From assembly GCA_963805625.1 (NCBI GenBank), contig CAWDVE010000014.1:1-64000 (forward strand): a stretch of DNA of 64,000 bases, in the 5' to 3' direction. The notes under the pieces were generated by a model, which worked only from the letters and a program-made list of their open reading frames with translations, was not told the DNA's origin and searched no databases. The stretch is from an uncultured Candidatus Rokubacteria bacterium. Lineage in GTDB: Bacteria; Methylomirabilota; Methylomirabilia; Rokubacteriales; DASRDR01. How positions within the stretch are numbered: position 1 is the stretch's first letter; every line of letters starts with the position of its first letter. A program made the translations under genes and the position numbers. Shown here piece by piece: positions 15,726 through 42,196 of this stretch.

Positions 15726-15805
15726 CCTGACCCATTTACAAACGATGAACGACACGGAGCACCGGGTCTCTCATCGGTGCGATGGAAGTCTAATCCGCAC
15801 ACGGA

Positions 15806-19580: not shown

Positions 19581-19601
19581 TGGTGTCCCCGACGGGATTC
19601 G
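19581..19601 (-). repeat. att core: displaced copy of the tRNA-Glu(TTC) 3' end including CCA
   Basis: Identical to 42119-42139. The match ends within the T-loop. Confidence 0.9.
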
Positions 19602-19689
19602 CTGGCTTGTGGAAGCAGGAATTCCAAGGACTTATCAGGATCGCCTGATCCCTTGGTTGGAGCGCATACCACGATGGCGGTTCGAACAG

Positions 19690-19792
19690 AGTTCGACCCC
19701 ATGTTTCAGCCTTGAGAGGGCGGTGACGTGGGTAATGGCGACGCGGACTTACGCGCCGGTTGCCACCGGCGGTTGCCACGGAGCCTTTGAGT
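19690..19792. repeat. degenerate tRNA-Glu(CTC) fragment plus integrase arm-like repeats (copy 1)
   Basis: GCCTTGAGAGGG-N19-GACGCGGACTTA...CGGTTGCCACCGGCGGTTGCCAC, repeated with the same N19 spacing at 32925-32995. Confidence 0.7.
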
Positions 19793-19920
19793 AAGCAGTG
19801 GCTCATAGTCCACTAGCGATCCCTCGGCGGATGCCAGCCTCCGAGGGCAGTCCCCTTCCGAACCTCTCACATTGACGAGCACCCTTGGCTCATTGCCCAG
19901 CTCAGACGGGCTGATCCTGC

Positions 19921-21258
19921 TCAGATTCGCGGCAGGACCTTCGTCTCCACCAGTTCCTTTGCCGCATCGTCAAAGATCCCGATGGTCCGATCGATCTCAC
20001 GCTCGGTGTGAGCGGACGATGTCACCCCGCCGGTGTAAGACAGGACGTCCACCCCTCGGGCCCGCAGGGCTTGCTGGATCCCCGACACGATGGGCTTGGG
20101 AATACCCTTGAGCTGCGCGGCATCGAGATCCTTGATGGACGGTTTCCCGATGTAGATGTGAAAGGTTGACGAGTCGCCATAGACCACGCCCGCAACGCCG
20201 CGACGGCTCATCACTTCCTGGAGTCCATGCCGCAGCCGCGCCGCCATGGCATCCGCCTGTGCTTGCGGTGCGCCAGTCGCCACCTCTGTAAGCGTCGCGA
20301 CGCCGGCGGCAGCTGCCAGCGGATTGGCATTGAAGGTCCCACGATGGATGGCGCGCGACCGCTTTCCGCGCACCTCCTCGCGAGGATCAAGAACGCGCAT
20401 GATCTCGACTCGGCCCCCGACCGCTCCACCGGGCAACCCGCCGGTCACGACCTTCGCCAGCGTCGTCAGGTCGGGTGTGACACCAATGCTCGCTTGGACG
20501 CCCCCGGGACCGTACCGGAACCCGGTGATAATCTCATCGAAGATGAGGACGACCCCATACTGCGTAGCCAGCCGTCTCAACTCGGCGTGAAAGCCGGGTG
20601 ACAGCGGCACGGTGCCCCAGGACGCCCCGGACGCCTCGAGGATGACAGCGGCCACATCCCGATCCTTCCGAAGCACCTCCTCCACTCGAGTGGCGTCATT
20701 GGCGGGCAATACGATGGTCGCCTCGATACTCCCCGGGAGGATCCCAAGCGACGGGGCCTCGTAGAATGGCAAGTCCATCCCGGTGGCCAGATGGTCATGC
20801 CAACCGTGGTAGTGGCCTTCGAAGCGAACGATCTTCGTCCGGCCCGTGAACGCACGGGCAATCCGAACGGCCAGCATGGTGGCCTCAGTACCGGAGCCCA
20901 CGAAGCGGACGCGTTCGGCGGACGGAATCAGACGCTGGATCAGCTCAGCCCACTGAAGCTCCAGCGGGTGACAGTTTGAGAAGAATGTACCTTTCGCCGC
21001 TTGATCCTGGATCGCCTTCACTACGGTCGGCGATGCATGACCGAGGAGGAGCGACGCGCTTCCCATCGAGTAGTCGATGTACTCGTTTCCGTCGACGTCC
21101 CACGTCCTCGGACCGTCCGCCCGCTCGATGTATATCGGGAAGGGTGCCGCAAAGCGATTCTCGTGCGACACGCCACCAGGCAGCAAGCCGACCGCCCGCT
21201 CGAACAGGTCCTTCGAACCCTTCCGCGCCCGGTACAAGGTTCCCGCCACACTCTCCAT
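19921..21258 (-). CDS. class-III PLP aminotransferase (glutamate-1-semialdehyde aminomutase-like)
   Basis: WDVDGNEYIDY, SGTEATM, FEGHYHGWHD, FDEIITGFR, TLAK, GTFNANP. Lacks the HemL SPVRA motif. Confidence 0.9.
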   Translation of the reverse strand: MESVAGTLYRARKGSKDLFERAVGLLPGGVSHENRFAAPFPIYIERADGPRTWDVDGNEYIDYSMGSASLLLGHASPTVVKAIQDQAAKGTFFSNCHPLELQWAELIQRLIPSAERVRFVGSGTEATMLAVRIARAFTGRTKIVRFEGHYHGWHDHLATGMDLPFYEAPSLGILPGSIEATIVLPANDATRVEEVLRKDRDVAAVILEASGASWGTVPLSPGFHAELRRLATQYGVVLIFDEIITGFRYGPGGVQASIGVTPDLTTLAKVVTGGLPGGAVGGRVEIMRVLDPREEVRGKRSRAIHRGTFNANPLAAAAGVATLTEVATGAPQAQADAMAARLRHGLQEVMSRRGVAGVVYGDSSTFHIYIGKPSIKDLDAAQLKGIPKPIVSGIQQALRARGVDVLSYTGGVTSSAHTEREIDRTIGIFDDAAKELVETKVLPRI

Positions 21259-21383
21259 CTGCTCCGATCCTCCTCGTTCCCTTTAGCAGCGGCCACTCTC
21301 GGGCCGACAGCTCGGTGTCTCCGGACTGCACAGACTGCCAGCCCAGCGCTTGGATCCCCGACACGCGCGTCGACGAGCGAAGG

Positions 21384-22985
21384 CTAGTTCTTCACCACCG
21401 GGTACAGTCGTACGGCGCCCAGGGGAAAGTATTCATATCCGCTGATGTTCGGCCGTACAACGACCTCGACCTTCCCCTGGAGGAGGTTCACGTAGGGGCC
21501 GTTCTCGACGAGATACGCGAGCAGCTCCTTGTACATGGCCGACCGTCGCTTCGGGTCGAGCTCCGCATCCGCCTTTCGCGTCATGTCCTTGGCCTTCGGA
21601 TCGTCCCACCTGAGCCGGGGCGCAAAGGTGTGGAGGACCATCTGGCCGGCCCAGTCACTCGGTCCGATATAGTCCGGGTTGTTGTACGAGATGACGGCGA
21701 TCTCCATCTTCGCCCGATACTGGGTGATCATGACCGAGTACTCGAGCGGCACGAGCTGAGCCTCGACGCCGATCTTCTTCAGGTCCGACTGGACCTTCTG
21801 CGCCACCGCTTCGTACGTGACGCCGACCGGCGACGGCCCCGTGAAGTACTTCAGCGGAAACTTGAAGCCATTCGGGAACCCCGCCTTCGCCAGCAGTTCC
21901 TTGGCGAGATTCACGTCGAACTTGGGATTGAGCTTGTCGGCGTCGGCTTGGGTCTCCAAGCCGAGGACCCCGATCGAGAAGAGCGCCGGGCCGATGACCG
22001 CCCGGCCCCCCGCCAGCTTGATGAGTCCCGATCGATCCACCGCGTGCCGGAGCGCCTGGCGAACCTCCTTCTTGGCGAACGCCGGATTGAGGGCCGGATC
22101 GACCGTGACACCCATGTACATGTTGTCGAGCGATTGTCCGACGAGGATTTTGACGTTCTTATTGCTTCTCATGGTGGCGGTGAGGTCCGGTGTGATGTTG
22201 ATCGCCACGTCGACATCACCGTTCTCCACCATCAGTTTCTGCGTCGCCGCGGACGTGATGGCCCGGGCGTCGATCTTGGCGAGCTTTGCCGCGCCCTTCC
22301 AGTACGTCGGATTCCGCTCCAGGGTGACCGCTGTGTCCTTCTGCCACCCCTTCAGAACGAACGGACCACTCCCCGCCGAGTTCTGGCTGAGCCACTCCTC
22401 CGCCTTGTCGTCCTTGTCCGCCGTCGCCGCGTCGCTGGCACCGTGCTCTTTGGCGAGCTTCGAATCGAGAATCGAGGAGCTCGGGCCCGCCATGACGGCC
22501 AGCCAGTCCGCGAACGGCTCGTTGAGAACCATCTTGACGGTCAACGGATCTACGATGACAACTTCCCTCAGCGGATCCATCAGCCAGCTCGGGTTGCCCT
22601 TCACATTCTTGAGCCGCATCAGGCTGAACTTCACATCCTCGGCACTGAATGGATTCCCACTCGCGAACTTGACGTTAGGCCGTAGCTTGAAAGTGTACTC
22701 TTTGCCATCCGACGAGACCTTCCACTCCGTCGCCAGCATCGGCACGAATGTATTCAGATCATTGGACCCTTTGTGAGCAAGGAGCTGGTCGTACGTGTTG
22801 CTGTCGATGAAGAACGACATGAACTCAAAGCCGCGACCGGGGTCGAGTGTCTTCGCCTCGGACTGGTCGAGCGCCATGATCAGCGTCTTGTCGCTTCCAG
22901 TCGTTTGGCCTGTCGCCGGCAGAGCCGCCCCAACTACCGTGAGTGTCACGAGCGCGAGGATGACAGACATGCGCGACCGCCCCAT
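21384..22985 (-). CDS. ABC transporter substrate-binding protein, family 5 (DppA/OppA-like)
   Basis: RBS GGAGGAG, signal peptide, LDPG, LATEW..S.DGKEYTFKLRPNVKFASG, GSGPF, VRQAL. Confidence 0.92.
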   Translation of the reverse strand: MGRSRMSVILALVTLTVVGAALPATGQTTGSDKTLIMALDQSEAKTLDPGRGFEFMSFFIDSNTYDQLLAHKGSNDLNTFVPMLATEWKVSSDGKEYTFKLRPNVKFASGNPFSAEDVKFSLMRLKNVKGNPSWLMDPLREVVIVDPLTVKMVLNEPFADWLAVMAGPSSSILDSKLAKEHGASDAATADKDDKAEEWLSQNSAGSGPFVLKGWQKDTAVTLERNPTYWKGAAKLAKIDARAITSAATQKLMVENGDVDVAINITPDLTATMRSNKNVKILVGQSLDNMYMGVTVDPALNPAFAKKEVRQALRHAVDRSGLIKLAGGRAVIGPALFSIGVLGLETQADADKLNPKFDVNLAKELLAKAGFPNGFKFPLKYFTGPSPVGVTYEAVAQKVQSDLKKIGVEAQLVPLEYSVMITQYRAKMEIAVISYNNPDYIGPSDWAGQMVLHTFAPRLRWDDPKAKDMTRKADAELDPKRRSAMYKELLAYLVENGPYVNLLQGKVEVVVRPNISGYEYFPLGAVRLYPVVKN

Positions 22986-23227
22986 GGTTAGCCCCTCCTC
23001 CACACGTAGGTTGCGTCAGTGCCACGCGGGTCTTCCCCGGATGAGAGAGCTAAAGATATCCGAACGAGCCTGTCTGGGCGGCACCCGCGCTGTGCGACCA
23101 CACATCTCCGCCATGACAGAGCGCTCATATCCCCCCCACCCTGACACACGCCGTAGTCGCGCGACACTCGCGCGATGGAAGCAGGCAACGACTGGACCTC
23201 TTCGATACTCCGGGCATCTGGCACGGT

Positions 23228-23285
23228 AGTCTCTGCCGGCGATTCATTCTTGTCAATACCATTACGATATGAGACAGTTTTTCCA
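23228..23285 (-). promoter_or_regulatory. putative sigma-70 promoter with adjacent operator-like site
   Basis: Minus strand TTGACA(23256-51)-N17-GAGACT. TGAGACAGTTTTTCCA at 23270-23285 resembles the 28844-28859 site. Confidence 0.4.
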
Positions 23286-23456
23286 ACTCTCTGCCTGTCG
23301 ACGGCCCAATGTTCGGCGATACTCCTGATCCAATGTCGTGTCAGCATCGAGACCTCACGAGGTTTTGGGGCGACCCCACAAAACGATCTCGCCGCGGGTG
23401 GGTCCGAAGCGAACAGTCACATGATCCCGCACACTTAACACGCTCGAGGAACCATC

Positions 23457-24203
23457 GTGGATCTTGAACTGGGCGGCAAGGTCGCCTTGGTGACGGGAGG
23501 CTCGAAGGGCATTGGCCGCGCCTGCGCGGAGAGTTTGGCAGCTGAGGGCTGCCAGATCGCGCTCTGCGCCCGTGGACCGGAAGCCCTGGAGGTTGCCGCC
23601 CGGGAGCTCACTCGCCGAGGAGCGACAGCGATCACGATCTCAGCGGATCTCTCCGAGGAGACCTCGGCCAGTCGGGTGGTGGCCGAAGTGATCCGCCACT
23701 TCGGTCGATTAGACATCCTTGTGAACAATGCTGGTGCGATCCGGGACGGGGGCTTCTTGGAGACTGCGCTGTCTGTATGGGAGCACGACTGGCGGCTCAA
23801 GCTCACGGGGTATGTCCGGATGGCTCAGGCCGCGCTGCCCCTCATGCGCCTGCGTCGATGGGGGCGCATCATCAATATCGTCGGAACCGCGGCTCGCAAT
23901 CCCATGACCACGTTTATGGCAGGAGGAATCGCGAATGCCGGGCTCATCAACTTCACGCGTGCTCTCGCCGATCTCGGTGCGCCCGATCACATCCTCGTGA
24001 CCGCGGTGAGCCCAGGCCCAACCACCAGCGAGGAGTCGGATCGCGACCAAGTAGGACGCCCGGTCGCCAGTCCCCTTGGCCGCATGGGACGCCCCCGGGA
24101 CGTGGCCGATCTGGTCACCTTTCTCGCTTCGGAACGAGCAAGCTTCATCACGGGGGTCGCCATCACAGTGGATGGCGGGGCGAGTCGCGGCGTCCACCTG
24201 TAG
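23457..24203 (+). CDS. short-chain dehydrogenase/reductase (atypical catalytic motif)
   Basis: TGGSKGIG, LVNNAG, VSPG, VDGG. The YxxxK position reads GGIAN. Confidence 0.88.
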   Translation: MDLELGGKVALVTGGSKGIGRACAESLAAEGCQIALCARGPEALEVAARELTRRGATAITISADLSEETSASRVVAEVIRHFGRLDILVNNAGAIRDGGFLETALSVWEHDWRLKLTGYVRMAQAALPLMRLRRWGRIINIVGTAARNPMTTFMAGGIANAGLINFTRALADLGAPDHILVTAVSPGPTTSEESDRDQVGRPVASPLGRMGRPRDVADLVTFLASERASFITGVAITVDGGASRGVHL

Positions 24204-24271
24204 TCGCGTGTGGAGACGCCTTACGACACCGGCGATGGATCCCTCCAGAGCATCTCCGGCACGGTGAGGTG

Positions 24272-24795
24272 ATGCCTGCATTGCCTCTAGCCCGCGACGC
24301 ACTCGTCGGACCCCCTCCGGGCCAATCGGCGTCGACTCTTTCGGCAGCTCTTCCAGAAGCCGACGGTCGTCCTCGGAGTCATGGTGATGCTCGCCTGGAC
24401 CGTCATTTCGATCCTGGCCCCGGTGATCCGAATGATCCCATCGAGATGAACCTGGATGAACGGCTTGCGCCACCCTCGACGGCCTGGGGAGTGACGTTCT
24501 CTCCCGAGTCTTATGCGGTGGGCGCGTCTCCCTGCCCGTGGCCCTCGTCGTCGTGATCACGGCGTCTGTGCTCGGGACCTTGTAAGAGACGCCCGCAGCC
24601 TATCCGGCGGCTGGTTCGACGAGCTAGCAATGCGGATCGTGGACATGGTGCTCGCCTTCCCATCGCTGATTCCCGCCATGGCGATCGCGGCGGCGCGGGG
24701 CCCGAGCATCCAGAACTCGATGCTCGCGCTGCTGATCGTGTGGTGGCCACCGTATCCTCGCCTCTCTCGCACCCAGGTTCTGGCTCTCAAAGCGC
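24272..24795 (+). pseudogene. degraded DppC-like ABC permease
   Basis: Fragments in several frames: VMVMLAWTVISILAP, DERLAPPS, GGWFDELAMRIVDMVLAFPSLI...GPSIQNSMLALLIVWWPPYPRLSR. Confidence 0.75.
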
Positions 24796-24854
24796 GGTGG
24801 TGTCCGAGATCACTGCTGAGGCACGAATCGTCCAACATCCAACGCTCGGGACGG

Positions 24855-26219
24855 CTACAGCGTGATCCCAGCCGCAAAGGCATGGAAGTCGGGCAACGTC
24901 TCCAGTGTCATACAGGCGTGGTAGAGTCGTTTCGTCGCCTCGTCGCCCCAGATCGGAGTCCCGAGCTCAAAGAACTTTCGCTCCAACTCGCTCGGCTCGT
25001 GCGGGTTGCTCGGCTCACCCTTCGTCACCGTACAGTGCCCTTCAATCGTCGCTCCCCGTTTCAGCCGTAGCGTGACGATGCACCGCTGCTGAGCAGGGTA
25101 CGCCGCGGTGAACGCCGGATCCTCTTCGACACTCACCCGGGCCGCCAACGCCCGAACCTTCTGGTTGGCAACCGCGGCTTCATTGAACGACCCAAGCCCG
25201 GACTGACCGTGGTAGAGAATACTCGCCAATGCGAAGGGGATGGAAAATCGCGCGCCGAAGCTGCTCGTCACCGCCTTCTCGGCGAGGAACGCTGCCATCT
25301 TGTACGCGCGGACGTCGATCACGTCGATCTCCTCGCTATCCAGGCGTCCTCCGGCCACCTTCTTGAGCGCATCCTCCAGCGCATCGATGGCGGAGTGGAC
25401 ATATCGGCCGGTCGGGTGAAGCTTGAAGTATCCGTCCGCCAGCAGCCACTCTCGGCCGAGGCCGGCAACCGCGGTCTCGGGATCAAACCCGTCTGACAGC
25501 ACATGCCCGAAGATCGATCGCACCCCGTCACGCTCCCCCGTGAATCCGGCCTCGACGAGACGAACCGCCATGATTCCCATGAAGCCGCTATGACCAGAAT
25601 AGATGTTCCGGACCGTGGCCCCCTCGAGCAGTGTCTTGCGGCTCGTCGCCATCCCCATGGTCGCGGCAACGTTGATAAGCTCGCGCATCGCGGTCGGAGT
25701 GAATCCTCGCAGACGTCCGACGGCCACGGCCGCGCCGATCACGCCATATGTGCCGTGCGGATGCACCAGAATGCGCGTCTTGGCCGCGCGGCTGATGCGA
25801 GAGCACACCTCGTAGCCGAGCGATGCCGCGAGCAGGAGTTCAGCGCCGGATACGGCACTCTCTTGTGCGACGGCAACGGCGGCAGGCACAACTTGGATGC
25901 CGGGGTGCCCCTTCGCGAATAGGTTGCCCTCATCGAGTTCCAACCATGTCCCCGCAGTACCATTCAACAACGCTGCATCCAACGCGGCGGCTCGGCGTCC
26001 CGTCCCGATTACCCAAGCGCCTCCCGACGCGGCAGTGTCGAGGTGCGCCGCGACGAGCGCCTTCATCTCGTCCACCTGCATTCCGGCCGCAATCACCGGG
26101 AGACAATCCGCCAGCACCCACCGCATGTGCTCATGAGCCCGGCCGCTCAGATCCGAGAGGCGTGCTTCGGCCGCGAAGCGGCCGAGCTCATCCAGGTATT
26201 CGTCTTCACGCGGCTTCAT
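24855..26219 (-). CDS. MmgE/PrpD family protein
   Basis: AALLNGTAG..LELDEG, GHPG, FKLHPTGRYVHSAIDA, FSIPFALA, KGEPSNP. Confidence 0.9.
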   Translation of the reverse strand: MKPREDEYLDELGRFAAEARLSDLSGRAHEHMRWVLADCLPVIAAGMQVDEMKALVAAHLDTAASGGAWVIGTGRRAAALDAALLNGTAGTWLELDEGNLFAKGHPGIQVVPAAVAVAQESAVSGAELLLAASLGYEVCSRISRAAKTRILVHPHGTYGVIGAAVAVGRLRGFTPTAMRELINVAATMGMATSRKTLLEGATVRNIYSGHSGFMGIMAVRLVEAGFTGERDGVRSIFGHVLSDGFDPETAVAGLGREWLLADGYFKLHPTGRYVHSAIDALEDALKKVAGGRLDSEEIDVIDVRAYKMAAFLAEKAVTSSFGARFSIPFALASILYHGQSGLGSFNEAAVANQKVRALAARVSVEEDPAFTAAYPAQQRCIVTLRLKRGATIEGHCTVTKGEPSNPHEPSELERKFFELGTPIWGDEATKRLYHACMTLETLPDFHAFAAGITL

Positions 26220-26282
26220 CACGACGCGCCCTCCACCCAAGACGAGTCAAGGCTGCTGGTTTCCAGACGGCCGGGGGCGGCT

Positions 26283-27716
26283 TCAACAGGCGGCACGCCC
26301 AAGCACTGCTCCATCGATCTTCCGAGGCGTGACGAGTTGTCCGTCACCCAAGGTGCCAGCGAGCCAGCCTCCGTCAACGATGACTTTCCCTCGCAGGATC
26401 GTCATCACTGGCCAACCAGACACCTCCCACCCTTCCCATGGGCTGTAGTCGCTGACGTGAAAATCATCGCGAGTGAGTCGCTTCCTGATCGACGGATCGA
26501 TGATGGCAAGATCGGCGTCGCTTCCGACTTCGATGACCCCCTTCTTCGGAAACATGCCGAAAATCTTCGCGGCATTTGTGGAGGTGACGTCGGCGAACCG
26601 AGCCAGTGACATACCCCGTTTGCCAACACCCTCCGTAAACACGATCCCCATCCGAGCCTCAGCACCCAGGTTCCCGCCCGTTACGTTCTCGACGGTCCTT
26701 CCTCGGAGCTTCAGTTCCAGCGAGGTTGGAAACTCATCCGTCGCCGTGGTCGACACGTCGTCACCGACGAGGCCGCTCCACAGAGCCTGCTGATCCTCAG
26801 GTCCCTTCAGCGACGGATAGGTGTGGTAACAGTAGCCGCGCGGTGTCCTGTACTGTTCCGCCGAAAAGCACGCGTAGTGATGTAACGTTTCCGCATAGAT
26901 GGGTAGGCCGGCGGCCCTGGCTTCCGCCACGGCCTCCACGCCCTCTTTCGCCGAGGTGTGCACGAAATACACCGCCGCGCCCGTCGCTCTCGCCACTTCG
27001 ATGGTGCGGCGAAATGAAAGGAGCTCCGAGAGCTTGTTGTGAATCAGATGCATGTTCCACCCTTCCAACCGCCCCTCGCGCCGGAACTTCTCGTACATGA
27101 ACTGGACCACGTCATGGTCCTCGGCATGGACAGCGAGGATTCCCCCGTGCGATGCGAGCTTCTCCATCGCGAATTGCATGCGCCCGAAGTCGAGGCGGCG
27201 CGACTCGCGTTTGGGGTGGGGCGGCAAAAGGTCCGCCGTGAAGACCTTGAAGCTGGGAAAGCCCTGCTGGATCGCCTCCGGAATCTGATCGAACACGCCG
27301 AGCTCGAGCGCACCGAGCAGAGTGACGTGGAAGGAATAGTCCACGTGCGACTGTCCTCTCCAACGCGCCACCCGTTCCTCCAAGGCGTGTTGCAGATCGA
27401 CACCCGGCCGGATGAAGCAGAAGTCGATGTGCGTGGTGGTGCCACCAAAAGCGAGGCCGCGTGTGTCTTCCTCGGGCCCCAAGGTATAGAACGCCTCCTC
27501 CGGGTGCATGGAGATGTAGTGCGCCAGATGGGTGTGGGGCTCAATGCCTCCTGGCACCACGATCTTCCCTACCGCGTCAATAGATCGGCCGGCCTCACTG
27601 CGAAGTGAACCGGGGGGACCGAGGCTAGCGATCTTCTCCCCTTGAATGCCAATCTCCCACTCTCCCACGCCTTGAGCCGTCACCACCTGGTCACCACGGA
27701 CCACGAGATCGAGCAT
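26283..27716 (-). CDS. cyclic amidohydrolase (dihydropyrimidinase/hydantoinase-like)
   Basis: PGGIEPHTH, GGTTT, SFKVF (carbamylated Lys), HAED, VHTS, TDE, NAAKIFGMFPKKG. Confidence 0.9.
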   Translation of the reverse strand: MLDLVVRGDQVVTAQGVGEWEIGIQGEKIASLGPPGSLRSEAGRSIDAVGKIVVPGGIEPHTHLAHYISMHPEEAFYTLGPEEDTRGLAFGGTTTHIDFCFIRPGVDLQHALEERVARWRGQSHVDYSFHVTLLGALELGVFDQIPEAIQQGFPSFKVFTADLLPPHPKRESRRLDFGRMQFAMEKLASHGGILAVHAEDHDVVQFMYEKFRREGRLEGWNMHLIHNKLSELLSFRRTIEVARATGAAVYFVHTSAKEGVEAVAEARAAGLPIYAETLHHYACFSAEQYRTPRGYCYHTYPSLKGPEDQQALWSGLVGDDVSTTATDEFPTSLELKLRGRTVENVTGGNLGAEARMGIVFTEGVGKRGMSLARFADVTSTNAAKIFGMFPKKGVIEVGSDADLAIIDPSIRKRLTRDDFHVSDYSPWEGWEVSGWPVMTILRGKVIVDGGWLAGTLGDGQLVTPRKIDGAVLGRAAC

Positions 27717-27956
27717 CCTGCCTCCTCCAATCGGTCCGTCGGTCTCTTGGGTTCCGGGATATGGTGATGATACTGAGCGGTCAGCCAGCTAGAATGCCGT
27801 CGGTCTGCCTGGGGTGGCCACAGAAACGCGAGTGCACGGCCGATTTCCCAGTTGAACCCGTGCAGCCGGGCGGCGTTCTCGCCGGCAACCAGCGATTGGC
27901 CAGGCTCTGGCCCATGCCGTGGAGGCGCCTCGAGCCCAGCACGCTACCCCGACGAA

Positions 27957-28706
27957 CTACGGCATGTACGATCCGCCATTCACATGCAGCACCTGGCCCG
28001 TAATGTGGCGAGCGTAGTCCGATGCGAGGAACACCGCCACGTCCGCAATGTCACCAGGATTGGCCATCCGGCCCAGCGGAATAGCTCTCGAGCGCGCCTG
28101 TATCTCCTCCTCGCTATGGCCATAGCGAGGCTGAGCGGTATCGGTCAGACCCGGGGCGATGGCATTGACCCGAATTCGATGCGGCGCTAGCTCCAGCGCC
28201 ATTGCGCGCGTCATCGTCACGATGCCGCCCTTGCTCGCCGAGTAGTGGACACCGCGTACGGCCCCCGCTACCGCGGATGACGCCACGTTGATGATGGATC
28301 CCGCGCGTCTCGCCGCGATCATGGCGCCAGCTGCCGCCTGGGCACAAAAAAAGCTGCCACGGAGATTGATGTCGAGCACGTAGTCCCAGTCGCTCTCACG
28401 CATCTCAAGCATTGCCACGCGCGGGTACATGCCCGCATTGTTCACCAAGATATCGACGCCGCCGAGTTCACGCACGACGGTCTCGACCATAGCGCGCCCC
28501 TCTTCGGTCTTCGACACGTCGCCTGACACAAGCAGGGCGCGCCGGTCGTGGGCGCGAACTCCCTCGGCCACCTTTTCGGCCGCGCCCCGATCGTCAAGAT
28601 AGTTGATGCCCACGTCGGCGCCGTCGCGTGCGAACGCCAACGCCATGGCGCGACCGATTCCCTGTTGGGCTCCGGTCACCAGAACTACCTTGGCATCGAC
28701 CCGCAT
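27957..28706 (-). CDS. short-chain dehydrogenase/reductase (FabG-like)
   Basis: TGAQQGIG, NNAG, YSASK, IRVNAIAPG. Confidence 0.92.
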   Translation of the reverse strand: MRVDAKVVLVTGAQQGIGRAMALAFARDGADVGINYLDDRGAAEKVAEGVRAHDRRALLVSGDVSKTEEGRAMVETVVRELGGVDILVNNAGMYPRVAMLEMRESDWDYVLDINLRGSFFCAQAAAGAMIAARRAGSIINVASSAVAGAVRGVHYSASKGGIVTMTRAMALELAPHRIRVNAIAPGLTDTAQPRYGHSEEEIQARSRAIPLGRMANPGDIADVAVFLASDYARHITGQVLHVNGGSYMP

Positions 28707-28785
28707 CGTCCCTCTATTTCTACCGGCACGGGCCGGATGTCGGCGTTCGCTTACGGTCCCGTCAACCAGATGGCTCCACCGCCAC

Positions 28786-28859
28786 AAGATAGGTTCCGGT
28801 CGGAATCGCTGTCAAGTACAGATATGTTCGTCATTCCCAACACTGAAATCTCAGTTTCA
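28786..28859 (-). promoter_or_regulatory. putative sigma-70 promoter and palindromic operator
   Basis: Minus strand TTGACA(28815-10)-N18-TATCTT. Imperfect palindrome TGAAATCTCAGTTTCA at 28844-28859. Confidence 0.45.
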
Positions 28860-29088
28860 TTCTCATGGGCGCCTTGACGCATCGTCTCCTCTGGGTCACT
28901 GTTCGCATCAGACGTTGAATGCGCTCGAGCTCTGCAAGAGTGGCCGACGACTCGGAGGCGCTGACGTATGCATGGCAGAGACTCACCGACTCGGCCCGGG
29001 CTCGCGGAGTCCAGCGCGTGAAGACGCTCACACCAGAGCTGGTCTACCGACTCGTTCCACCCACCCGCCGTCCGACAAAGTGATCGAC

Positions 29089-30036
29089 CTATGAGCCCTC
29101 GGTATCGATTGCCCTTCCGGCACGAGCGACAACCTTGCCCGCGGAGGATTCATCCGGCACCTCTTCACCCTTCCGTCGGGCCCTGAACAGGTAATTTCGC
29201 TCAGCAAGAAAGTCATCCAGTTGCCTCAGGCGTCCCACCGCCCTCGTGCTCGAACGGGCAGCCACCTCGGCTACGAGGGCGTTCAGTAGCGCCAGAGGTG
29301 CCGCCAAGAAGTCCGTAAAAGACGTTTCCCCCACTTCCGTGTAGAGCATGTGGGTACACAGAGGCGCCAAGGGAGACAGCTCGATGTCGGTCAGACCAAG
29401 GCTCCTAAACCCCTGTTGCTTGCCAAACCTCGCCACGTCGAGCAGTTCCTGCGAGTATCGGGGCAGCGTCATCAGGATTAGGAGGGCCTTCCGATCACTC
29501 AACAGCAGGTCTTCGAAGGTCACGCTCCCCGCGCGCGTATGGAGCGTGACGTCTGGCTTCACCTTCCGCAGGTTGTACCACAGATAGTGCGCCAGCGTCG
29601 CGGCCGCTCGGAACCCAATGACCACGACGGCGGGGGCCTTCACCACTAGACGAACCGCTTGGCTCCACTGAGAAATGTTGAATCGCGACTGGAGCGTCAC
29701 GAGGTTCCGGAGCTCCTGATCAATGACCCGCCCAGCCAGTACGCGGGGCAGCCGCCCGTGGAGACTGGCGGTCAGTCGCTCATCCTGTCGCAGTTCGCTC
29801 CGAACGATGTCATGGAGCGCACGCTTGAACTCCGGATATCCGTCGAAGTCTAGGGAGGTCGCAAACCGCACCACGCTCGCCGGACTGATCTTGGCCGCTT
29901 TTGCCAGCTCTGTGACGCTCATGAACGCCACGTCTTGGTACTGACGAAGAACATACTCCGCCACACGTCGTTGACTTGGCGAGATGGGCCGACGCCGGCG
30001 ATTGAGTAGTGCGACCACGCGACCACGTTCCGACAT
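29089..30036 (-). CDS. MurR/RpiR-family transcriptional regulator (HTH + SIS)
   Basis: SPSQRRVAEY, SVTELAKAAKISPASVVRFATSLDFDGYPEF, SIS motifs IGFR, PRYS, LTD...SPL. Confidence 0.92.
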   Translation of the reverse strand: MSERGRVVALLNRRRRPISPSQRRVAEYVLRQYQDVAFMSVTELAKAAKISPASVVRFATSLDFDGYPEFKRALHDIVRSELRQDERLTASLHGRLPRVLAGRVIDQELRNLVTLQSRFNISQWSQAVRLVVKAPAVVVIGFRAAATLAHYLWYNLRKVKPDVTLHTRAGSVTFEDLLLSDRKALLILMTLPRYSQELLDVARFGKQQGFRSLGLTDIELSPLAPLCTHMLYTEVGETSFTDFLAAPLALLNALVAEVAARSSTRAVGRLRQLDDFLAERNYLFRARRKGEEVPDESSAGKVVARAGRAIDTEGS

Positions 30037-30071
30037 GTCGGACACGTCCTCCCTTCGCTGATCCGCGAGAC

Positions 30072-30100
30072 ACACTAGTGTGCCATGCGATGCCAGTCAA
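30072..30100 (-). promoter_or_regulatory. putative sigma-70 promoter of the RpiR gene
   Basis: Minus strand TTGACT-N17-TAGTGT. Confidence 0.45.
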
Positions 30101-30123
30101 CCCGCAACCAGTCTTGGCACGCA

Positions 30124-31619
30124 TGCTGTTGGTCCATAAGAATGTCATGGGCTAACTGTTCAGTGAGAGTGTCACCCCATGCCGACATGGGAGCCCTCAC
30201 GATGAGTCGCAAGGAAGTCCCGCGGCCCGGCCTGCTCAAGGCGGCCCTGGCCGGGAAGTTCACCAATGCCGAGGGAGCCGGGGCCTTGCACCTGAGCGTC
30301 CGGCAGTTCATCCGGGTCAAGCATCGCTTCCAGGCCGCCGGGGCGTCGGGCCTGTGCCACCGCCTGCGGGGGCGACCCTCCCCCCGCCGGCTGCCGGCCG
30401 ACGTCCGGGCGCGGGTGGCGGCGCTCCTGCAGACCACCTACCTCGATGTCAATGACTGCCACGCCACGGAGAAGCTGCGCGAGGTCGAGGGCCTCCGCGT
30501 CAGCCGGGCCTCCGTGCGGCGGATCCGCCGCGCCCTGGACCTGCCGGCCAAGCATCGCCGCCGGCCCCGCCAGCACCGGGCTCGCCGGACCCCGGAAGCC
30601 CGCAGGGGCGTCCTCGTCCAGCTCGACGGCAGCCCCCACGCGTGGCTCGAAGACCGGGGCCCCGCCCTGACCCTCCACGGCGCGATCGACGACGCCACCG
30701 GCACGGTCCTGGCCCTGCACGTTCGGCCGACCGAGGACCTGCACGGCTACGCCACCGTGCTCCAGCAAATCGGTCTGGCCTACGGCCTCCCGCTGACCCT
30801 GTACGGCGATCGTTTCGGCGTTTTCGTCCGCAACGACCCGCACTGGACGCTCGCGGAAGAACTCCAAGGCCACCAGCACCCCACCCATTTCGGCCAGATC
30901 CTCCGAGACCTCGCCATCGGCTTCCTGGCGGCGGGCTCCCCCCAGGCCAAGGGGCGCATCGAACGGCTCTGGCGCACCCTGCAAGATCGCCTCGTCGTCG
31001 AGCTCCGCCTGCGCGGGATCGCGACCCGCGCGGCGGCCAACGCCTTCCTCCCTGAGTTCCTCGCCGATTACAATGGCCGCTTCGCTCATCCCCCCACCGA
31101 CGCCCACGCCGCCTGGCGGCCGCGGCCGCGGGACTTCGCCGACCAACTCAGCTGCCGCTACACCCGCGTCGTCGCCCCCGACAACACCGTCCGCCTGGGG
31201 ACCCGCTGGGCCCAGATCCCCCCCGGTCCTTCCGGCCGCTCCTCCGCGGGCCGCCGTGTCGACCTCCGCGAGTGTGTCGACGGCCGGCTCCTTGTCGTCC
31301 GCGCCGGCGGGCGACTCGTCAGTCAGCCCTCGCCGGGGCCTGATTTCGTCCTCACGCCCCGCAGCAAGCCCCACGCGGAGCGCACGCGTCGCCTACGCGC
31401 CTCCAGGACTGCGTCGGAGGAGGGGGGCCGCCATCAGAGTATTCCCCAGAAACCGCCTGCGCGCCCCTCGGCGCGCCGCCTCACCCCGACCACCCAGACG
31501 GCTCGCCCCGCCGCCACGCATCCCTGGCGCCGCTCACTCAACCTCCGTCGCCACACCCCTCACACAGGGGTGACATTCTCACGGAACAGTTAGGGTGACA
31601 TTTTCACTGGACAGCTACA
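30124..31619 (+). mobile_element. complete IS1202-family (ISNCY/IS481-related) insertion sequence
   Basis: About 50-bp imperfect IRs with internal TGTCA repeats, right end ...CTACA. Flanked by the 18-bp direct repeat CCAGTCTTGGCACGCATG at 30108-30125 and 31620-31637. Confidence 0.85.
30187..31593 (+). CDS. DDE transposase (ISNCY/IS1202 type)
   Basis: N-terminal HTH LSVRQFIR, LVQLDGSPHAW, AIDDATG, LYGDR, SPQAKGRIERLWRTLQDRL. Confidence 0.92.
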   Translation: MGALTMSRKEVPRPGLLKAALAGKFTNAEGAGALHLSVRQFIRVKHRFQAAGASGLCHRLRGRPSPRRLPADVRARVAALLQTTYLDVNDCHATEKLREVEGLRVSRASVRRIRRALDLPAKHRRRPRQHRARRTPEARRGVLVQLDGSPHAWLEDRGPALTLHGAIDDATGTVLALHVRPTEDLHGYATVLQQIGLAYGLPLTLYGDRFGVFVRNDPHWTLAEELQGHQHPTHFGQILRDLAIGFLAAGSPQAKGRIERLWRTLQDRLVVELRLRGIATRAAANAFLPEFLADYNGRFAHPPTDAHAAWRPRPRDFADQLSCRYTRVVAPDNTVRLGTRWAQIPPGPSGRSSAGRRVDLRECVDGRLLVVRAGGRLVSQPSPGPDFVLTPRSKPHAERTRRLRASRTASEEGGRHQSIPQKPPARPSARRLTPTTQTARPAATHPWRRSLNLRRHTPHTGVTFSRNS

Positions 31620-31711
31620 CCAGTCTTGGCACGCATGTAGATCTCGGCAGTTCGTTCCGCTCCGGTGTGGGACCGCCAACGCAGCGCGTCTCAACGGGTG
31701 AGCGCGCAGGC

Positions 31712-32490: not shown

Positions 32491-32599
32491 GCGACTTCTC
32501 GCATTCTTGCCTCGTGTCTCCCGACGATCGAACGGGATCTGAGCCAGTGTAAAGACAGTCATGCCACGGGCATGCCGTTTGTCGTCTCCAGCGACGTGT

Positions 32600-32743
32600 G
32601 AGGATGACCTCGAGGAGGTGCGCGCGCTCCTCGGCCATGCTCGGATCGACACGACTCAGATCTATACGCGCATCCGGCCGCCACAGTTCCAGCGCGCGGT
32701 CCCGTTCTACGACCAGACTGCACGGCGGATGCTCATCAGCTGA
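32600..32743 (+). pseudogene. C-terminal remnant of a tyrosine recombinase/integrase
   Basis: DLEEVRALLGHARIDTTQIYT is the box II LGH...Y catalytic motif. The rest of the gene is missing. Confidence 0.8.
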
Positions 32744-32890
32744 TGCACGGTTCAAGGCCCCGTTTGAGCCTCGATGTGCAACGGCTCGAACAGGATTTGA
32801 ATGGGCGGAATCCCGTTCGATCGGAATCGGGTTTCAGGACGTTGGCCAAGGCCCTCAAATCGGGGAACGAAACATCCAGAGAACATCGAG

Positions 32891-32936
32891 TGGTGGCTCC
32901 AGCGGGATTCGAACCCGCGTTTTGGCCTTGAGAGGG
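32891..32936 (-). repeat. 3' half of tRNA-Glu(CTC) (att fragment, not a full tRNA)
   Basis: Minus strand CCCTCTCAAGGCC-AAAAC-GCGGGTTCGAATCCCGC-TGGAGCC-A-CCA. Truncated just 5' of the anticodon loop. Confidence 0.85.
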
Positions 32937-32955
32937 TTGTAACCAGGACTGTGGT

Positions 32956-33008
32956 GACGCGGACTTAGGGCGCGGTTGCCACCGGCGGTTGCCACCGCGC
33001 CTTCGAGT
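32956..33008. repeat. integrase arm-like tandem repeats (copy 2)
   Basis: GACGCGGACTTA and a 23-bp exact match CGGTTGCCACCGGCGGTTGCCAC to 19757-19779. Confidence 0.7.
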
Positions 33009-33244
33009 GCGCAACAGGCTAGCCTGGACACCGCCTCGGCAACAGCCCGAAGTCGTCCGCGGAGAGTGGCCATCCCAAGCCGAACGATGGCGGACGGCCC
33101 CTTGATCTGGTAGGAAGCGGCCGCCACGCCCTACGGGAAGTCGCGTGGGAAACGGGTGGCCGGTCGCTCCGGCGTCAGTCGCTCCCGCCAAGTCCGGAGC
33201 CCGTCGAATGGACGGAGGCGCTGCTGTGACCATCGGCCTTCCCC

Positions 33245-33410: not shown

Positions 33411-33419
33411 GACGGATGC

Positions 33420-36460: not shown

Positions 36461-36961
36461 CTAGAAGTGAAATCGCACGACCACCGGCGGCATCCCCTGT
36501 CGCGGAAAGACCAGAAACACATTACTATACTCGTCCCGGCCGATCGGAACGTCTGCTGTGTGTCCCAGCGCCCTGAGCAACACCGGGATGGTTTGCGAAT
36601 GGCTGACGATGAGCACACGATCCTGGGTGTGCTCGACGGCAAGCCGCCTCACCAGTGCCTCGATCTCGCGTCGCGGCACGATCCGGCTGTCGATCGCCAA
36701 CACCTTCGCCAGTGGTTGCGCGGTCTGAATCGTCCGCAGAGTCTCGCTCGTGTAAATGACGCGGATGCCCGCGTCTCTGAGGACGCTGGGTAGCCGTGCA
36801 GCGCGCTGATGGCCGATGTCCGTTAGCGGTGGATCCTCCCCATCGACCGCCTGCTCCGTATGCCGAATGATGAAGACCGCCTCTTGGGCCATGCTTGCGA
36901 GTGGGACCAGGAGGCAGAGGCAGGTGAAGAAGACGATGACAGCAAGTCTCCCGAAAGGCAT
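36461..36961 (-). CDS. histidine phosphatase (PGAM/SixA-like) family protein, exported
   Basis: Signal peptide, IRHTE, PLT..G..RA, RTIQTA, VSHS. Confidence 0.88.
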   Translation of the reverse strand: MPFGRLAVIVFFTCLCLLVPLASMAQEAVFIIRHTEQAVDGEDPPLTDIGHQRAARLPSVLRDAGIRVIYTSETLRTIQTAQPLAKVLAIDSRIVPRREIEALVRRLAVEHTQDRVLIVSHSQTIPVLLRALGHTADVPIGRDEYSNVFLVFPRQGMPPVVVRFHF

Positions 36962-36982
36962 GCGTGTCGCCCTCCCTTCCTC

Positions 36983-37966: not shown

Positions 37967-37995
37967 GTCTCCTCTCCGGCTCGAGATCGTGCGCC

Positions 37996-38665
37996 TCAGC
38001 ATAGCTCCGGTCCTGACCACCCGTCAGGCGCGATTTCGGTGGAGCCGGTCGCGGGAGGATTGATCCAGACTTCCGTCGGACACGCCGGCGGCCGGGGGAG
38101 CCCGCGGGGGAAGCGCTCTGGGCGCGCGGCGTGAGCCGTGGCGAGTACGACCGCTCGCGCTGCCACGCGTTGGTCGGCCAGGCCGTGGTGGACGTCATGG
38201 GGCGTCAGGAGCCCAAGGCCGCTGTGCCGATGCTCCGTGTTGTACCAGGGGAAGAAGGCGTGGCAGTAGGCGCGGGCGTCCTGGATCGAGCCGAACCGCT
38301 TCGGGAAGGCGGGCCGATACTTGAGCGTCTTGAACTGCGCCTCCGAGTAGGGATTGTCATTGGAGACGTGGGGTCGAGCATGGGTCTTGGTGACACCCAG
38401 GTCAGCTAGGAGGAGCGCCACGGGCTTCGAGGTCATCGCGGGTCCGCGATCTGCGTGGATGGTCAGCTGATTGCGTTCGATCCCCTGCCGGACACACGTC
38501 TCGCGGATGAACCGCTCCGCCAGCGTGGCGCTCTCCCGATGCGCCACCATCCAGCCCACCACGTACCGACTGAAGACGTCGAGTAATGTGGAGCTCCACA
38601 TGAGTCGAGCATGACATACAGGTAGAAGTAGGTCCACTTGGCCGGGCCGAGGAGCTTGGTGATGT
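37996..38665 (-). pseudogene. 3' part of an IS3-family transposase, truncated and frameshifted
   Basis: ITKLLGPAKWTYFYLYVMLD / VFSRYVVGW, HADRG, SNDNPYSEAQFKTLKY, WYNTEHRHSG. The 5' part is replaced by the neighbouring IS. Confidence 0.85.
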
Positions 38666-40007
38666 TGTCCTTCGCCAAAACCCCGTCCAGCGGCCAGGCG
38701 GTTGATCTTTCAGCTCGGATCCGGAGACAATGGCCGTCCCATGATCACCACGCTGCTCCACCTGCTTCGCCTCTTCCCGTTCCTCTGCGGCGGCCACCGC
38801 CAGCTCGCTCTCGAGAACCGTGCCTTGCGCCAGCAGCTCGTCGTGTACAAGAGAACGGCGAACCGGCCTCAGCTGCGCCCCCGCGATCGGCTCTTCTGGG
38901 TCGGCTTGTCCAGGGTGTGGACGGGATAGAGAACGGCCCTCGTGATCGTGGCGCCCGACACCGTCCGGCGCTGGCAGCGGCGCCGCTTCCGCCTGCACTG
39001 GTCCAAGCTCTCCGGTCAGCCCACTGGGGGCCGCCCGCCCATCAGCCCCGAGATCAGAGCCCTTGTCACACGAATGGCTGCGGCAAATCCCCTGTGGGGC
39101 GCCCCCAGAATCCATGGCGAACTCCTGAAGCTCGGTATCGACGTGGCCGAGCGCACCGTCTCCCGGCTGATCCCCAAGCGGCGCTCACCGCCCTCTCAGA
39201 CCTGGCGCGCGTTCTTGACCAACCATGTCGCGGACCTCGGTGCCATCGACTTCTTTACCGTACCCACCGCGCACTTGCGCGTGTTCTTCGTCCTCATCGT
39301 GCTCGCCCACCATCGCCGCCGTGTCCTCCACTTCAACGTCACCGAGCATCCCCCCGCCACATGGACCGCCCAGCAGATGGTGGACGCCTTTCCGGAAGAC
39401 TCCGCGCCGTCCTATCTCCTCCGCGACCGCGACAGCGTCTACGGTCACCTCTTTCAGCACCGACTGAGGGGCATGCGCATCCGTGAAGTGCTGACGGCCC
39501 CCCACAGCCCATGGCAGAACCCGGTCGTGGAACGCCTCATCGGCTCGATCCGGCGCGAGTGTCTGGATCATGTCCTCGTCCTGGGCGAGAGCCACCTGCG
39601 CCGCATCTTGACCCGCTACCTCGCGTACTCTCACCGCGCACGCACTCACCTCGCACTCGACAAGGATGCGCCCGACGGGAGGCCCAGCGAACCGCCGGCA
39701 CTGGGCACGATCATGGCGATTCCCGACGTCGGTGGGCTGCATCACCGATACGTCCGCCGGGCGGCATAATCCAGCATCGCTCGGCCGGCCTACCGCTCCC
39801 CAGCGCCACGGCCCTCACGACACGATCCTTCCTTCTGGGGCCAATCCGCCCACGCTGATCGACCGTTTGGGATGGCGGGACCGATGGCCTCAATCTGCCG
39901 ACTGCCCTGCGTCGAACGTCCCACCCACCATTCTTCGAGCGTGTTGGGCCTCTCCCAAGAGCACGGATCGTCGCCAAGCGAATCGGACGCGGTTTTGGCG
40001 AAGGACA
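38666..40007 (+). mobile_element. IS-like element with integrase-core (rve) transposase
   Basis: Perfect 17-bp IRs TGTCCTTCGCCAAAACC (38666-82) and GGTTTTGGCGAAGGACA (39991-40007). No flanking target duplication. Confidence 0.8.
38741..39769 (+). pseudogene. integrase-core transposase with in-frame TAG at 38927-38929
   Basis: LALENRALRQQL...W(TAG)...WGAPRIHGELLKLG, DFFTV, RDRD, PWQN..VERLIGSIRRECLD, GGLHHRY. Confidence 0.85.
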
Positions 40008-40438
40008 GGCGTGTGGTGAATCCTCAGCAGTCGCTGGTGGCCGGGGTAGAGCGGGCGTGTCCAGGTCGCCTCGGACTCGAACGTCACGGGCAATCGGCCC
40101 TCTTCGCGCACCACGAACGTGTAGCCCAACAGGAACGCAGGCACCGGGCCGTGCGTCGTAAGGCGGATCTCGAAGCTGTACGTGTCCGCATCCAGGAAGA
40201 AACTCTCATCGGCTAGGAAGTTCGCTTCTACCCATGGCCGATGCGTGGCGTCGAACATCCGCTGCGTGGTCGAGGCCTGCCGCTTAGCCTCACGGGCCAG
40301 GCGCCACGTGAGGGCGGCGTAGACACCGGCTACGACGACGCCCGCGACAGTCGCCAAGCCGGTCAGTCCGCTCAGCGCCGCCTGTTCCTTGCTGAGCCAG
40401 CCCCAAAGGTTGTTCCACCACGAGATCAAACTGTCCAC
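40008..40438 (-). CDS. hypothetical membrane-anchored protein, C-terminally truncated by the IS
   Basis: TM helix followed by YAALTWRLAREAKRQ...RPWV. The frame enters the IS IR at 40007. Confidence 0.6.
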
Positions 40439-40491
40439 GGCGGCGAGGGTAGCACGCCGGGTCTACAGACCAGTCACGTGAAAGGAGATGC

Positions 40492-42159
40492 TTGATGATC
40501 GCAGCCATCTACGCGCGCAAGAGCAACGAGCAAGGCGTCCCCGATGAGGCGAAGTCCGTAACCCGCCAGGTCGAGCACGCGACGGCGTATACCCAGCGGA
40601 AGGGCTGGACCGTTCACCCGTCTCACGTCTACGTCGACGACGCGATCAGCGGGGCGGAGTTCGTCAACAGACCGGGCTTGGCCAGGCTCCTGACCGCCCT
40701 GTCGTCGCGCCCGTTCCAGGTCGTCGTCATGGCCGAACCCTCACGCCTCGGCCGTGAGCAGATCGAGACCGCGTACACCCTCAAGCGCATCACGGACGCC
40801 GACGTGCGGGTGTTCTACTACCTGAATGACCACGAAGCCCTCATGGACACGGCGCTGGCGAAGGTGATGGCGTCGCTGACCGGGTTCGCCGCAGAGCAGG
40901 AGCGCGAGCAGGCCCGGGTCCGGACGCATGACGCGATGGCCCGCAAGGCGAAGGCCGGCCACGTCACGGGCGGGCTGACCTACGGCTACACCAACGTGCG
41001 CCGGGACGGCCACGTCGCGCGCCAGATCAACGAGCGCGAGGCGGCGGTCGTCAAGCGCATCTTCGCCGACTACGTGCAGGGGATCGGTCCCCGTGCCCTC
41101 GCCGTCGCCCTCGCGGCGGAGGGTGCGATCCCACCCAAGCCACGGCAGCGAGGGGCGGTCCCCGGATGGTCGCGGGCCGCGATCCTGGACATCCTCAAGC
41201 GCGACCTGTACCGGGGCGAGATCGTCTGGAACCGCCTCAAGAAGACGGACCGTGGTGGCCGGACGAAGGTCCGGGTTACCCGGGCCACGACGGACCTGAT
41301 CCGCGTCCAGGACGAATCCCTCCGCATCATCGACGACGTGACGTGGGAGGCGGCGCAGGCACGCCGGCAGAAGATGGCCGGCACTCGACCGGCAGGATCA
41401 TGGACCCGGAGCACGACCCCCTCCACGCCCGCGCTGCTGGCGGGCATCGCGCGCTGCGCGGGCTGCGGCGCGCCCCTGACCCGGCGTGGCCGACCGAACG
41501 GGTCAGGCAAGAATCGGACCCGCATCATGATGTACGTGTGCAGCAGTCGGAACCGGCCCGGGGTCTGCGCCAACGCGGTCGCGCTCAAGGAGTCTATCCT
41601 CGACGACGCCGTCCTCCACGCCCTGGCGGACGCCCTGTCCGCCGACGCGATCGAGGCGGCGGTCAAGCGGGCGATGGCCGAGGCGAAGGCGGAGCTGTCC
41701 GGGAGTGCGGATCGCCGGGTCGAACTCGACCGGGACATCCGGACGGTGGAGACCCGGCTCGCGCGGCTGATGGAAGCCCTCGCGGCGGGCACGATGCCGG
41801 TCGGCGTCATCACCCCGAAGGTGACCGAGGAGGAGGCACGACGGGTCAGCCTGACCCGCGAGCGCGATGCCCTGGCCACGGCCGGCGCCGTGGTCGACTA
41901 CACCAACACGAAGGTCCTAGCCGCGATCAAGGCAGCGGCCGGCGACGTCCGGGCTGCCCTGCTGGAACATCGCACGGAGGCGAAGGACGTCTTGTCCGCG
42001 TTCCTCGACACGATCGTGTTCACCCCGTTCGGCGCAGGCCGTGCGCGGGGCTACGAGTTCAAGGGGACCGGCGACTACGGGTCCCTGATCGGCCAGGCCG
42101 TGAAACCTCTCCTGCGGGTGGTGTCCCCGACGGGATTCGAACCCGTGTTGCCAGATTGA
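40492..42159 (+). CDS. large serine recombinase (resolvase + recombinase + Zn-ribbon/coiled-coil)
   Basis: RBS AAAGGAG. AAIYARKS catalytic Ser, DDAISG...RPGL, SRLGR, GG..YGY, LLAGIARCAGCG...YVC...C. C-terminus VSPTGFEPVLPD is read from the antisense tRNA. Confidence 0.95.
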   Translation: MMIAAIYARKSNEQGVPDEAKSVTRQVEHATAYTQRKGWTVHPSHVYVDDAISGAEFVNRPGLARLLTALSSRPFQVVVMAEPSRLGREQIETAYTLKRITDADVRVFYYLNDHEALMDTALAKVMASLTGFAAEQEREQARVRTHDAMARKAKAGHVTGGLTYGYTNVRRDGHVARQINEREAAVVKRIFADYVQGIGPRALAVALAAEGAIPPKPRQRGAVPGWSRAAILDILKRDLYRGEIVWNRLKKTDRGGRTKVRVTRATTDLIRVQDESLRIIDDVTWEAAQARRQKMAGTRPAGSWTRSTTPSTPALLAGIARCAGCGAPLTRRGRPNGSGKNRTRIMMYVCSSRNRPGVCANAVALKESILDDAVLHALADALSADAIEAAVKRAMAEAKAELSGSADRRVELDRDIRTVETRLARLMEALAAGTMPVGVITPKVTEEEARRVSLTRERDALATAGAVVDYTNTKVLAAIKAAAGDVRAALLEHRTEAKDVLSAFLDTIVFTPFGAGRARGYEFKGTGDYGSLIGQAVKPLLRVVSPTGFEPVLPD

Positions 42160-42196
42160 AAATCTGGAGTCCTAGGCCTGCCTAGACGACGGGGAC
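42119..42196 (-). tRNA. tRNA-Glu: tRNA-Glu (anticodon TTC)
   Basis: GTCCCCG/CGGGGAC acceptor stem, CCAGA-TT-TTC-AA-TCTGG anticodon arm, ACGGG-TTCGAAT-CCCGT T-arm, encoded ACCA end. Confidence 0.96.

Follow-up and report, generated by a model that had tools for sequence, protein, structure and literature searches.

A tRNA-Glu island whose serine integrase gene crosses its own attachment site, with a candidate degradation tag at the C-terminus of the circle form

The integrase of myxophage Mx8 is a tyrosine recombinase. Its gene contains attP, and integration gives the gene a new 3' end and changes the specificity and activity of the enzyme (PMC6070905). In mycobacteriophage BPs, attP lies inside the repressor gene and integration removes an ssrA-like C-terminal tag from the repressor; the BPs integrase, a tyrosine recombinase, carries a tag of its own whether or not the phage is integrated (PMC3694055, PMC4557955). 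In the ssrA islands of Dehalococcoides, the 3' end of the gene for DsiB, a large serine recombinase of ~540 aa, always overlaps the att repeat and its stop codon lies outside the island; these islands form tandem arrays, and it was suggested that DsiB is fully functional only on the circle or beside an adjacent island and that the overlap of its 3' end with att has regulatory relevance (McMurdie et al. 2011, PMC3146451). For serine-integrase elements in which no directionality factor is known, it is an open question how futile cycles of integration and excision are avoided (PMC12286644). Here, we describe a tRNA-Glu island in a 64,000-nucleotide stretch of DNA from an uncultured Candidatus Rokubacteria bacterium of the phylum Methylomirabilota (contig CAWDVE010000014.1; hereafter the window), the large serine integrase gene of which runs through its own att site, and we compare it with related islands in which the homologous gene would mostly acquire an alanine-ending tail on the predicted circle.

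The island, 22,538 bp in length, is inserted at an intact tRNA-Glu(TTC) gene and is delimited by an exact 21-bp direct repeat, the two copies of which are spaced by 22,538 bp and share identity on neither side. On the right, the repeat forms the 3' end of the tRNA gene, and no third copy was found in the window. The features involved are:
19581-19601, plus strand: distal att junction, i.e. the displaced tRNA-Glu 3' end and the P' arm of the element, exact repeat
19591-19592, plus strand: dinucleotide GA at which crossover is predicted, in the middle of a short dyad where acceptor stem and T-stem meet (placed by the end of identity in relatives and by dyad symmetry)
19601-19648, plus strand: stranded final 15 codons and stop of the circle-form integrase, ending in Ile-Ala; candidate degron
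40495-42159, plus strand: intact large serine integrase gene, 554 aa when integrated
42119-42139, plus strand: proximal att junction, i.e. the P arm within the integrase gene and the restored tRNA; predicted crossover GA 42129-30
42119-42196, minus strand: tRNA-Glu(TTC), the integration target; read in antisense, it completes the integrated-state integrase with its final 6 residues and its stop

The integrase open reading frame (ORF) starts at ATG 40495, downstream of a purine-rich Shine-Dalgarno sequence (40482-87), and encodes Resolvase, Recombinase and Zn-ribbon domains (Pfam). The catalytic Ser motif and four Cys of large serine recombinases are present, R8, S10, C321, C324 and C349 being invariant in alignment A1, and a coiled coil is seen in structural models. 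For the additional antisense control by convergent tRNA transcription that the original prediction raised as a possibility, a scan found no promoter or terminator consensus. In the integrated state, the protein has 554 aa and ends in EPVLPD, with the stop TGA 42157-59 antisense to bases of the tRNA anticodon loop. In the modelled circle, the same frame encodes 563 aa, residues 549-563 being AGLWKQEFQGLIRIA (19601-19645, stop 19646-48). Modelled excision thus puts a 15-residue tail ending in Ile-Ala in place of six tRNA-antisense residues. The original prediction, made from this sequence, was that the recombinase ORF crosses the repeat and borrows its EPVLPD end and stop from anticodon-loop antisense, that joining the repeats yields a 22,538-bp circle with a stranded tail in frame, and that the enzyme has two state-specific C-termini; the integrated sequence and the modelled junction bear out all of this.

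AlphaFold predicts that the folded core of the window integrase ends near residue 540, upstream of the crossover codons, and predicts the tail as disordered, unplaced on the fold at low confidence, both for a naturally tail-bearing homologue (P0064, residues 548-571) and for the window form (residues 541-554). In both cases the alignments mixed tail-bearing and tRNA-form rows, and therefore the models show only that both isoforms retain the whole core. The fold of P0064 matches solved large serine integrases (Foldseek E 1e-21 to 1e-14, 15-18% identity). In another frame, the stretch before the core at 42090-42120 is similar to the terminal part of P0003, the closest homologue. The local sequence suggests that a small insertion may have moved the window integrase gene into the frame matching the tail.

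Related loci were recovered from Methylomirabilota, Nitrospirota and Acidobacteriota by scanning genomes, viral contigs and metagenomes. Their integrase genes end in the 3' part of tRNA-Glu, less often of tRNA-Ala, Arg, Ser or Lys; among the 120 homologues listed out of 1,876, the termini are mostly tRNA-antisense peptides, with all three reading frames in use. No close relative was found among 50,697 GenBank phages (best 26-32%). After long contigs had been extended, a distal att, for which 12 matching bases on the left were demanded, was located for 20 of the 78 integrase ends at a tRNA-like T-arm, many of the others lying on short contigs. The integrases of these 20 islands are 25-66% identical to one another. 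The median identity of their tail DNA is 29%, i.e. background, except in one cluster of four. In the genome of the window itself (G000:C10 1.94-2.02 Mb, C22:75485, C6:4320), a second full family integrase is found at a displaced tRNA-Glu(CTC) fragment, and at least four more att junctions carry tails that end in Ala; two of these tails are near-copies of that in the window.

In 9/20 pairs, the last identical positions are the dinucleotide that corresponds to GA 19591-92/42129-30. Both attP and attB form a short dyad around this GA, the inner part of which (positions 2-5) holds across the 20 pairs. Since identity ends there in relatives and the dyad is centred there, the crossover is likely to be this GA, at the acceptor/T-stem junction and in codons 545-546; the 21-bp repeat then appears longer than the real overlap. 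A crossover in the T-loop is rejected, as identity ends 9 bp earlier in 9/20 pairs. Because of the 12 left-side matches demanded in the search, there is room for a crossover further to the left.

The tails were then compared in frame with the integrase gene to which they would be joined. In-frame tails end in Ala in 18/20 islands and in Ala-Ala in 13/20, as against 4/40 and 0/40 for the other two frames of the same DNA; with the window excluded, the figures are 17/19 and 13/19. As a background, 13.9% of long host ORFs have a terminal Ala and 1.8% a terminal Ala-Ala. A distal tail with a hydrophobic-Ala end, conserved in homologous islands, had been foreseen in the original prediction and is indeed found. 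All three crossing frames are represented among the Ala-ending tails, the pairs using a minority frame all end in Ala in their own frame (5/5), and a tree of 101 proteins requires 16 or more changes of the crossing frame. The tails are 11-27 residues long, carry alternating hydrophobic residues and are highly variable, except for the last one or two residues and the immediate stop, which are conserved. The stop lies 33-81 nt from the crossover, beyond the ~25-bp att arm.

Further junctions point the same way. At natural non-tRNA junctions, an Ala-ending tail of 10-35 aa is present in some frame in 27/33 cases versus 249 of 2,999 random positions. Among the 13 complete non-tRNA forms at the viral loci (n=29), ten end in Ala and seven in Ala-Ala. 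One of these loci, L100, is a temperate phage genome without a tRNA in which the integrase gene lies between replication and tail genes; its integrase locus is a natural attP form. For the window tail, an Ala-ending frame of 10-35 aa arose in 92 of 2,996 trials at random positions. It has three near-copies (two in this genome and one in G008), with identity of 74-93% as far as the stop and 20-35% beyond, and the four copies keep the peptide even though two use one frame and two another, owing to a 1-nt indel just past the core. Thus, the window tail exceeds chance, given the random trials and a conservation of its near-copies that reaches only up to the stop. In the family, as judged from these comparisons of sequence, the tail is selected as a peptide.

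The integrated-state end presents a different picture. Among 88 tRNA-form ends, four are Ala, none is Ala-Ala and two are Asp, and there are 50 distinct tails of 1-78 residues. This end is not under selection, and the Asp of the window is incidental. The original prediction had proposed a stable form designed to end in LPD; the arbitrary ends speak against it, and a terminal Asp as a designed stabiliser is ruled out, being present in only 2/88.

What could such a tail do? Degrons of the ClpX type are marked by a hydrophobic tail of variable sequence in which only the final Ala or Ala-Ala is fixed, and in an E. coli screen the terminal Ala-Ala was critical (bioRxiv 2024.01.29.576913). The host encodes ClpX, and its tmRNA tag, the gene of which is on another contig, ends in Ala-Leu-Ala-Ala; both agree with the degron-like character proposed at the outset. 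We consider it probable, from the sequence signature, that the Ala-ending tail on the free-circle integrase is a ClpXP-type degradation tag that integration removes. In such a scheme, the integrase gene spans its own attP and the free circle would encode an Ala-tailed enzyme, and integration into the 3' end of a tRNA would exchange this tail for arbitrary tRNA-antisense residues. The tagged form would be short-lived and would cap the level of integrase in the free state, thereby limiting the rate of integration after entry and of re-integration after excision. The integrated, untagged form would stay inactive until a directionality factor appears or expression is triggered. Where islands are stacked, an older integrase would become fused to the tail of the newcomer, since in tandem arrays 3/9 junction arms match the downstream integrase (scores of 9-12) and not the adjacent one (2-4). 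Such fusions of an older integrase with the tail of the element that follows were seen in tandem arrays of G252:C65, G255:C4, G257:C2, G258:C25, G264:C24, G253:C37, G274:C4 and L280.

Two other roles for the tail were weighed. Any gene that crosses attP requires a downstream stop, and a trivial variable C-terminus was one of the options given for DsiB (McMurdie et al. 2011, PMC3146451); yet that the tail merely supplies this stop, its Ala end being a by-product of GC-rich DNA or of constraints on att, is very improbable in view of the off-frame controls, the host background, the tracking of the frame and the position of the stops beyond the att arm. A structural tail, the main rival, is unlikely too, though less so: a β-strand packed on the zinc-ribbon would alter activity or block the site of a directionality factor, the circle thus favouring integration and the integrated form being open to excision, in an Mx8-like switch that matches the directionality reading of the original prediction. 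The alternating hydrophobic residues would suit such a strand. At the junction of zinc domain and coiled coil, directionality factors are predicted to contribute an extra strand, and it was proposed that in SCCmec recombinases this site is blocked by strands from the C-terminus (PMC12286644). The new 3' end that integration gives Mx8 alters the specificity of its integrase (PMC6070905), and a C-terminal toggle of SprA is named in the title of a reference. However, conservation is confined to the last one or two residues and the stop, in tails that vary in length and sequence, neither model (P0064 or window, with their mixed alignments) placed the tail on the fold, and excisionase-like genes are still present in 6/20 islands. 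A structural role and degradation can both hold.

Several observations weigh against the tail as a degradation tag and against the 19581 arm as the partner of this integrase. For an ssrA-like degron, i.e. an unstructured hydrophobic tail with Ala-Ala, the family offers Ala-Ala in its 13/20 tails, but the window tail ends in Ile-Ala, a weaker match; moreover, because of the mixed alignments, the low confidence of the tail in AlphaFold is no proof of disorder. A looser search added two pairs (G000:C10 and G003:C8) with Pro-ending tails, bringing the count to 18/22, and four of the 20 pairs are one related cluster. The symmetry of the outer attP arms averages 7.5/14 in the 20 cognate pairs and 4.3 in non-cognate ones, and the window scores 4/14. 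No circle junction was found among the contig matches listed, which are contigs only and leave many loose ends outside the list. Nor was an empty attB found: the DNA downstream of tRNA-Glu(TTC) differs among eight relatives and in none of them matches the left flank of the window.

These last points bear on whether the window is composite, its 19581 arm and tail stemming from an older element and having been joined, by a deletion, with a different integrase. We regard this as a serious possibility of somewhat below even probability; it would leave the switch real in the family and is compatible with the tag explanation at that level. The arm symmetry of the window is at background, and other integrase ends fit the 19581 arm better, up to 11/14. 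The window tail type is found twice elsewhere in the genome beside other integrase remnants, the interval between the repeats contains insertion sequence (IS) elements and relics of other islands, and the tandem junction arms that fit the downstream integrase far better (3/9) mean that mismatched neighbours are common. Against a composite origin, there is no extra core between the two repeats and the tail and the integrase gene share a reading frame. A low symmetry is also compatible with a cognate pair, because the score is no higher than 5/14 in 6/20 pairs and only 3-5 in the near-identical tandem elements of G258. When 251 genomes of the phylum were searched for close relatives of the integrase 3' end and of the tail, a weak match and a good one came up, too few to settle the pairing. 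On balance, we lean towards the 19581 tail being the co-evolved partner of this integrase. One contig spans 19502-19696 without differences and is possibly from the source sample, and 17500-19600 has a single long match among 40 relatives. As far as sequence can tell, the tRNA-Glu(TTC) site is an insertion hotspot.

The interval between the repeats carries, besides the features listed above:
19675-19797, plus strand: degenerate piece resembling tRNA-Glu(CTC), accompanied by short direct repeats, a relic of another integrative element, 75% identical to 32891-33013
19921-30075, minus strand: metabolic cargo, i.e. aminotransferase III, ABC solute-binding protein, MmgE/PrpD, amidohydrolase, SDR and RpiR regulator (Pfam)
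30118-31619, plus strand: ISNCY element, of which the genome has four other copies with ~99.7% identity
32561-33013, plus strand: remaining 3' part of a tyrosine recombinase gene (match to PF00589 below the cut-off, E=0.002), then a tRNA-Glu(CTC)-like 3' fragment with short direct repeats
37996-39769, strand unassigned: remnants of IS3/IS481-like transposases

The near-identity of the ISNCY element to its four other copies points to recent transposition. The degenerate copy of the tRNA-Glu(CTC)-like block of 32561-33013 starts 27 bp past the stranded tail, and both blocks (32561-33013 and 19675-19797) are remains of another integrase system that targeted tRNA-Glu. With its metabolic cargo, recent ISNCY, IS3/IS481 remnants, tyrosine-recombinase stub and two tRNA-Glu(CTC)-like relics, the window island is decayed. 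Because the element is decayed and its tail may not be the co-evolved partner, the switch is probably vestigial in this particular island. We take an AT-rich stretch just left of the distal repeat (19554-19580) to resemble motifs flanking the tRNA ends of tyrosine-integrase elements; it is unique in the genome, and the left flank may be another island. Further left, patatin-like genes and their neighbours are tandemly duplicated (12993-17041, blocks 82-86% identical).

It had also been claimed that the island lacks a recognisable directionality, replication or transfer gene, and that the tail swap could take the place of a directionality factor. Protein family scans agree with the former, none of these genes having been found in the island. 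As a general replacement, the latter is not supported: excisionase-like HTH_17/MerR proteins of 66-95 aa are encoded in 6/20 islands, four of them above the Pfam cut-off, and other islands encode ribbon-helix-helix or XRE-type regulators. That no excisionase-like gene was found in the window island is more readily put down to decay. Excision without a directionality factor is known for some serine recombinases (PMC5704250); given this and the decay of the island, the tail swap is not needed as a substitute. Three of the six excisionase-like proteins end in Ala-Ala themselves (L090:2836-3033, L024:4476-4685 and L204:11435-11635).

A more ambitious proposal, which we put forward only tentatively and hold to be doubtful, is that of a post-translational switch, driven by the recombination event itself, throughout a widespread family of tRNA-targeting serine integrases of soil and aquatic bacteria. 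The free form would be tagged and possibly biased towards integration, integration would strip the tag, and each stacked island would re-tag and silence the integrase it displaces; in elements without an excisionase, this would be the sole means of setting direction. A self-encoded, state-dependent tag would be a simple and directly testable answer to the problem of futile integration and excision, and one gene would join two known designs, an attP inside the integrase gene and a degron that integration removes. For practical purposes, annotated integrases of this family are mostly in the integrated, tRNA-antisense form and, therefore, those mining them as genome-engineering tools express a state-specific isoform. 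For targets in tRNA-Glu, Ala, Arg, Ser and Lys, attB/attP pairs follow from the 2-bp crossover predicted where acceptor stem and T-stem meet. No description of a degron swapped on a serine integrase was found in full-text searches of the literature, subscription journals not being covered. The main text of Durrant 2023 mentions neither "tRNA" nor "C-termin", and its supplements may list such elements.

How, then, does the element compare with known systems? Its catalytic, recombinase, zinc-ribbon and coiled-coil architecture is that of the Bxb1, phiC31 and SPbeta-type integrases, and short dyad att sites with a 2-bp centre, as in those integrases, are predicted for it, with outer attP arms at background symmetry in the window. 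To our knowledge, the genes of phage large serine integrases with directionality factors do not cross attP. The CcrB model gives the window integrase 100 bits, far under its 900-bit cut-off. As in BPs, integration through an attP within a gene would strip a C-terminal tag, here a candidate one defined by a sequence signature; unlike in BPs, it is the tail of the serine integrase itself that is swapped, and no repressor gene was found in the window island. For Mx8, the text available describes a change in specificity and activity and no degron (PMC6070905). The closest parallel in layout is DsiB, with which the window integrase shares a 3' end overlapping the att repeat and a stop outside the island. 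In contrast to the tmRNA (ssrA) target of DsiB, the target here is tRNA-Glu(TTC), with tRNA-Ala, Arg, Ser and Lys also used by relatives, and the predicted crossover is at the acceptor/T-stem junction and not in the T-loop. The six-gene module of DsiB (dsiB, dsiA, recF-like, parB, mom and a gene for a large protein) was not found in the window; a second serine recombinase, of ~200 aa, is present in 3/20 related islands. The accessible account of DsiB describes no conserved tail or degron (PMC3146451). Thus, the element resembles DsiB, Mx8 and BPs in its working and belongs with none of them, by reason of target, module or enzyme class; its layout is already published for DsiB, and the degron-like tail on the serine integrase itself is, as far as the searched literature shows, the new part.

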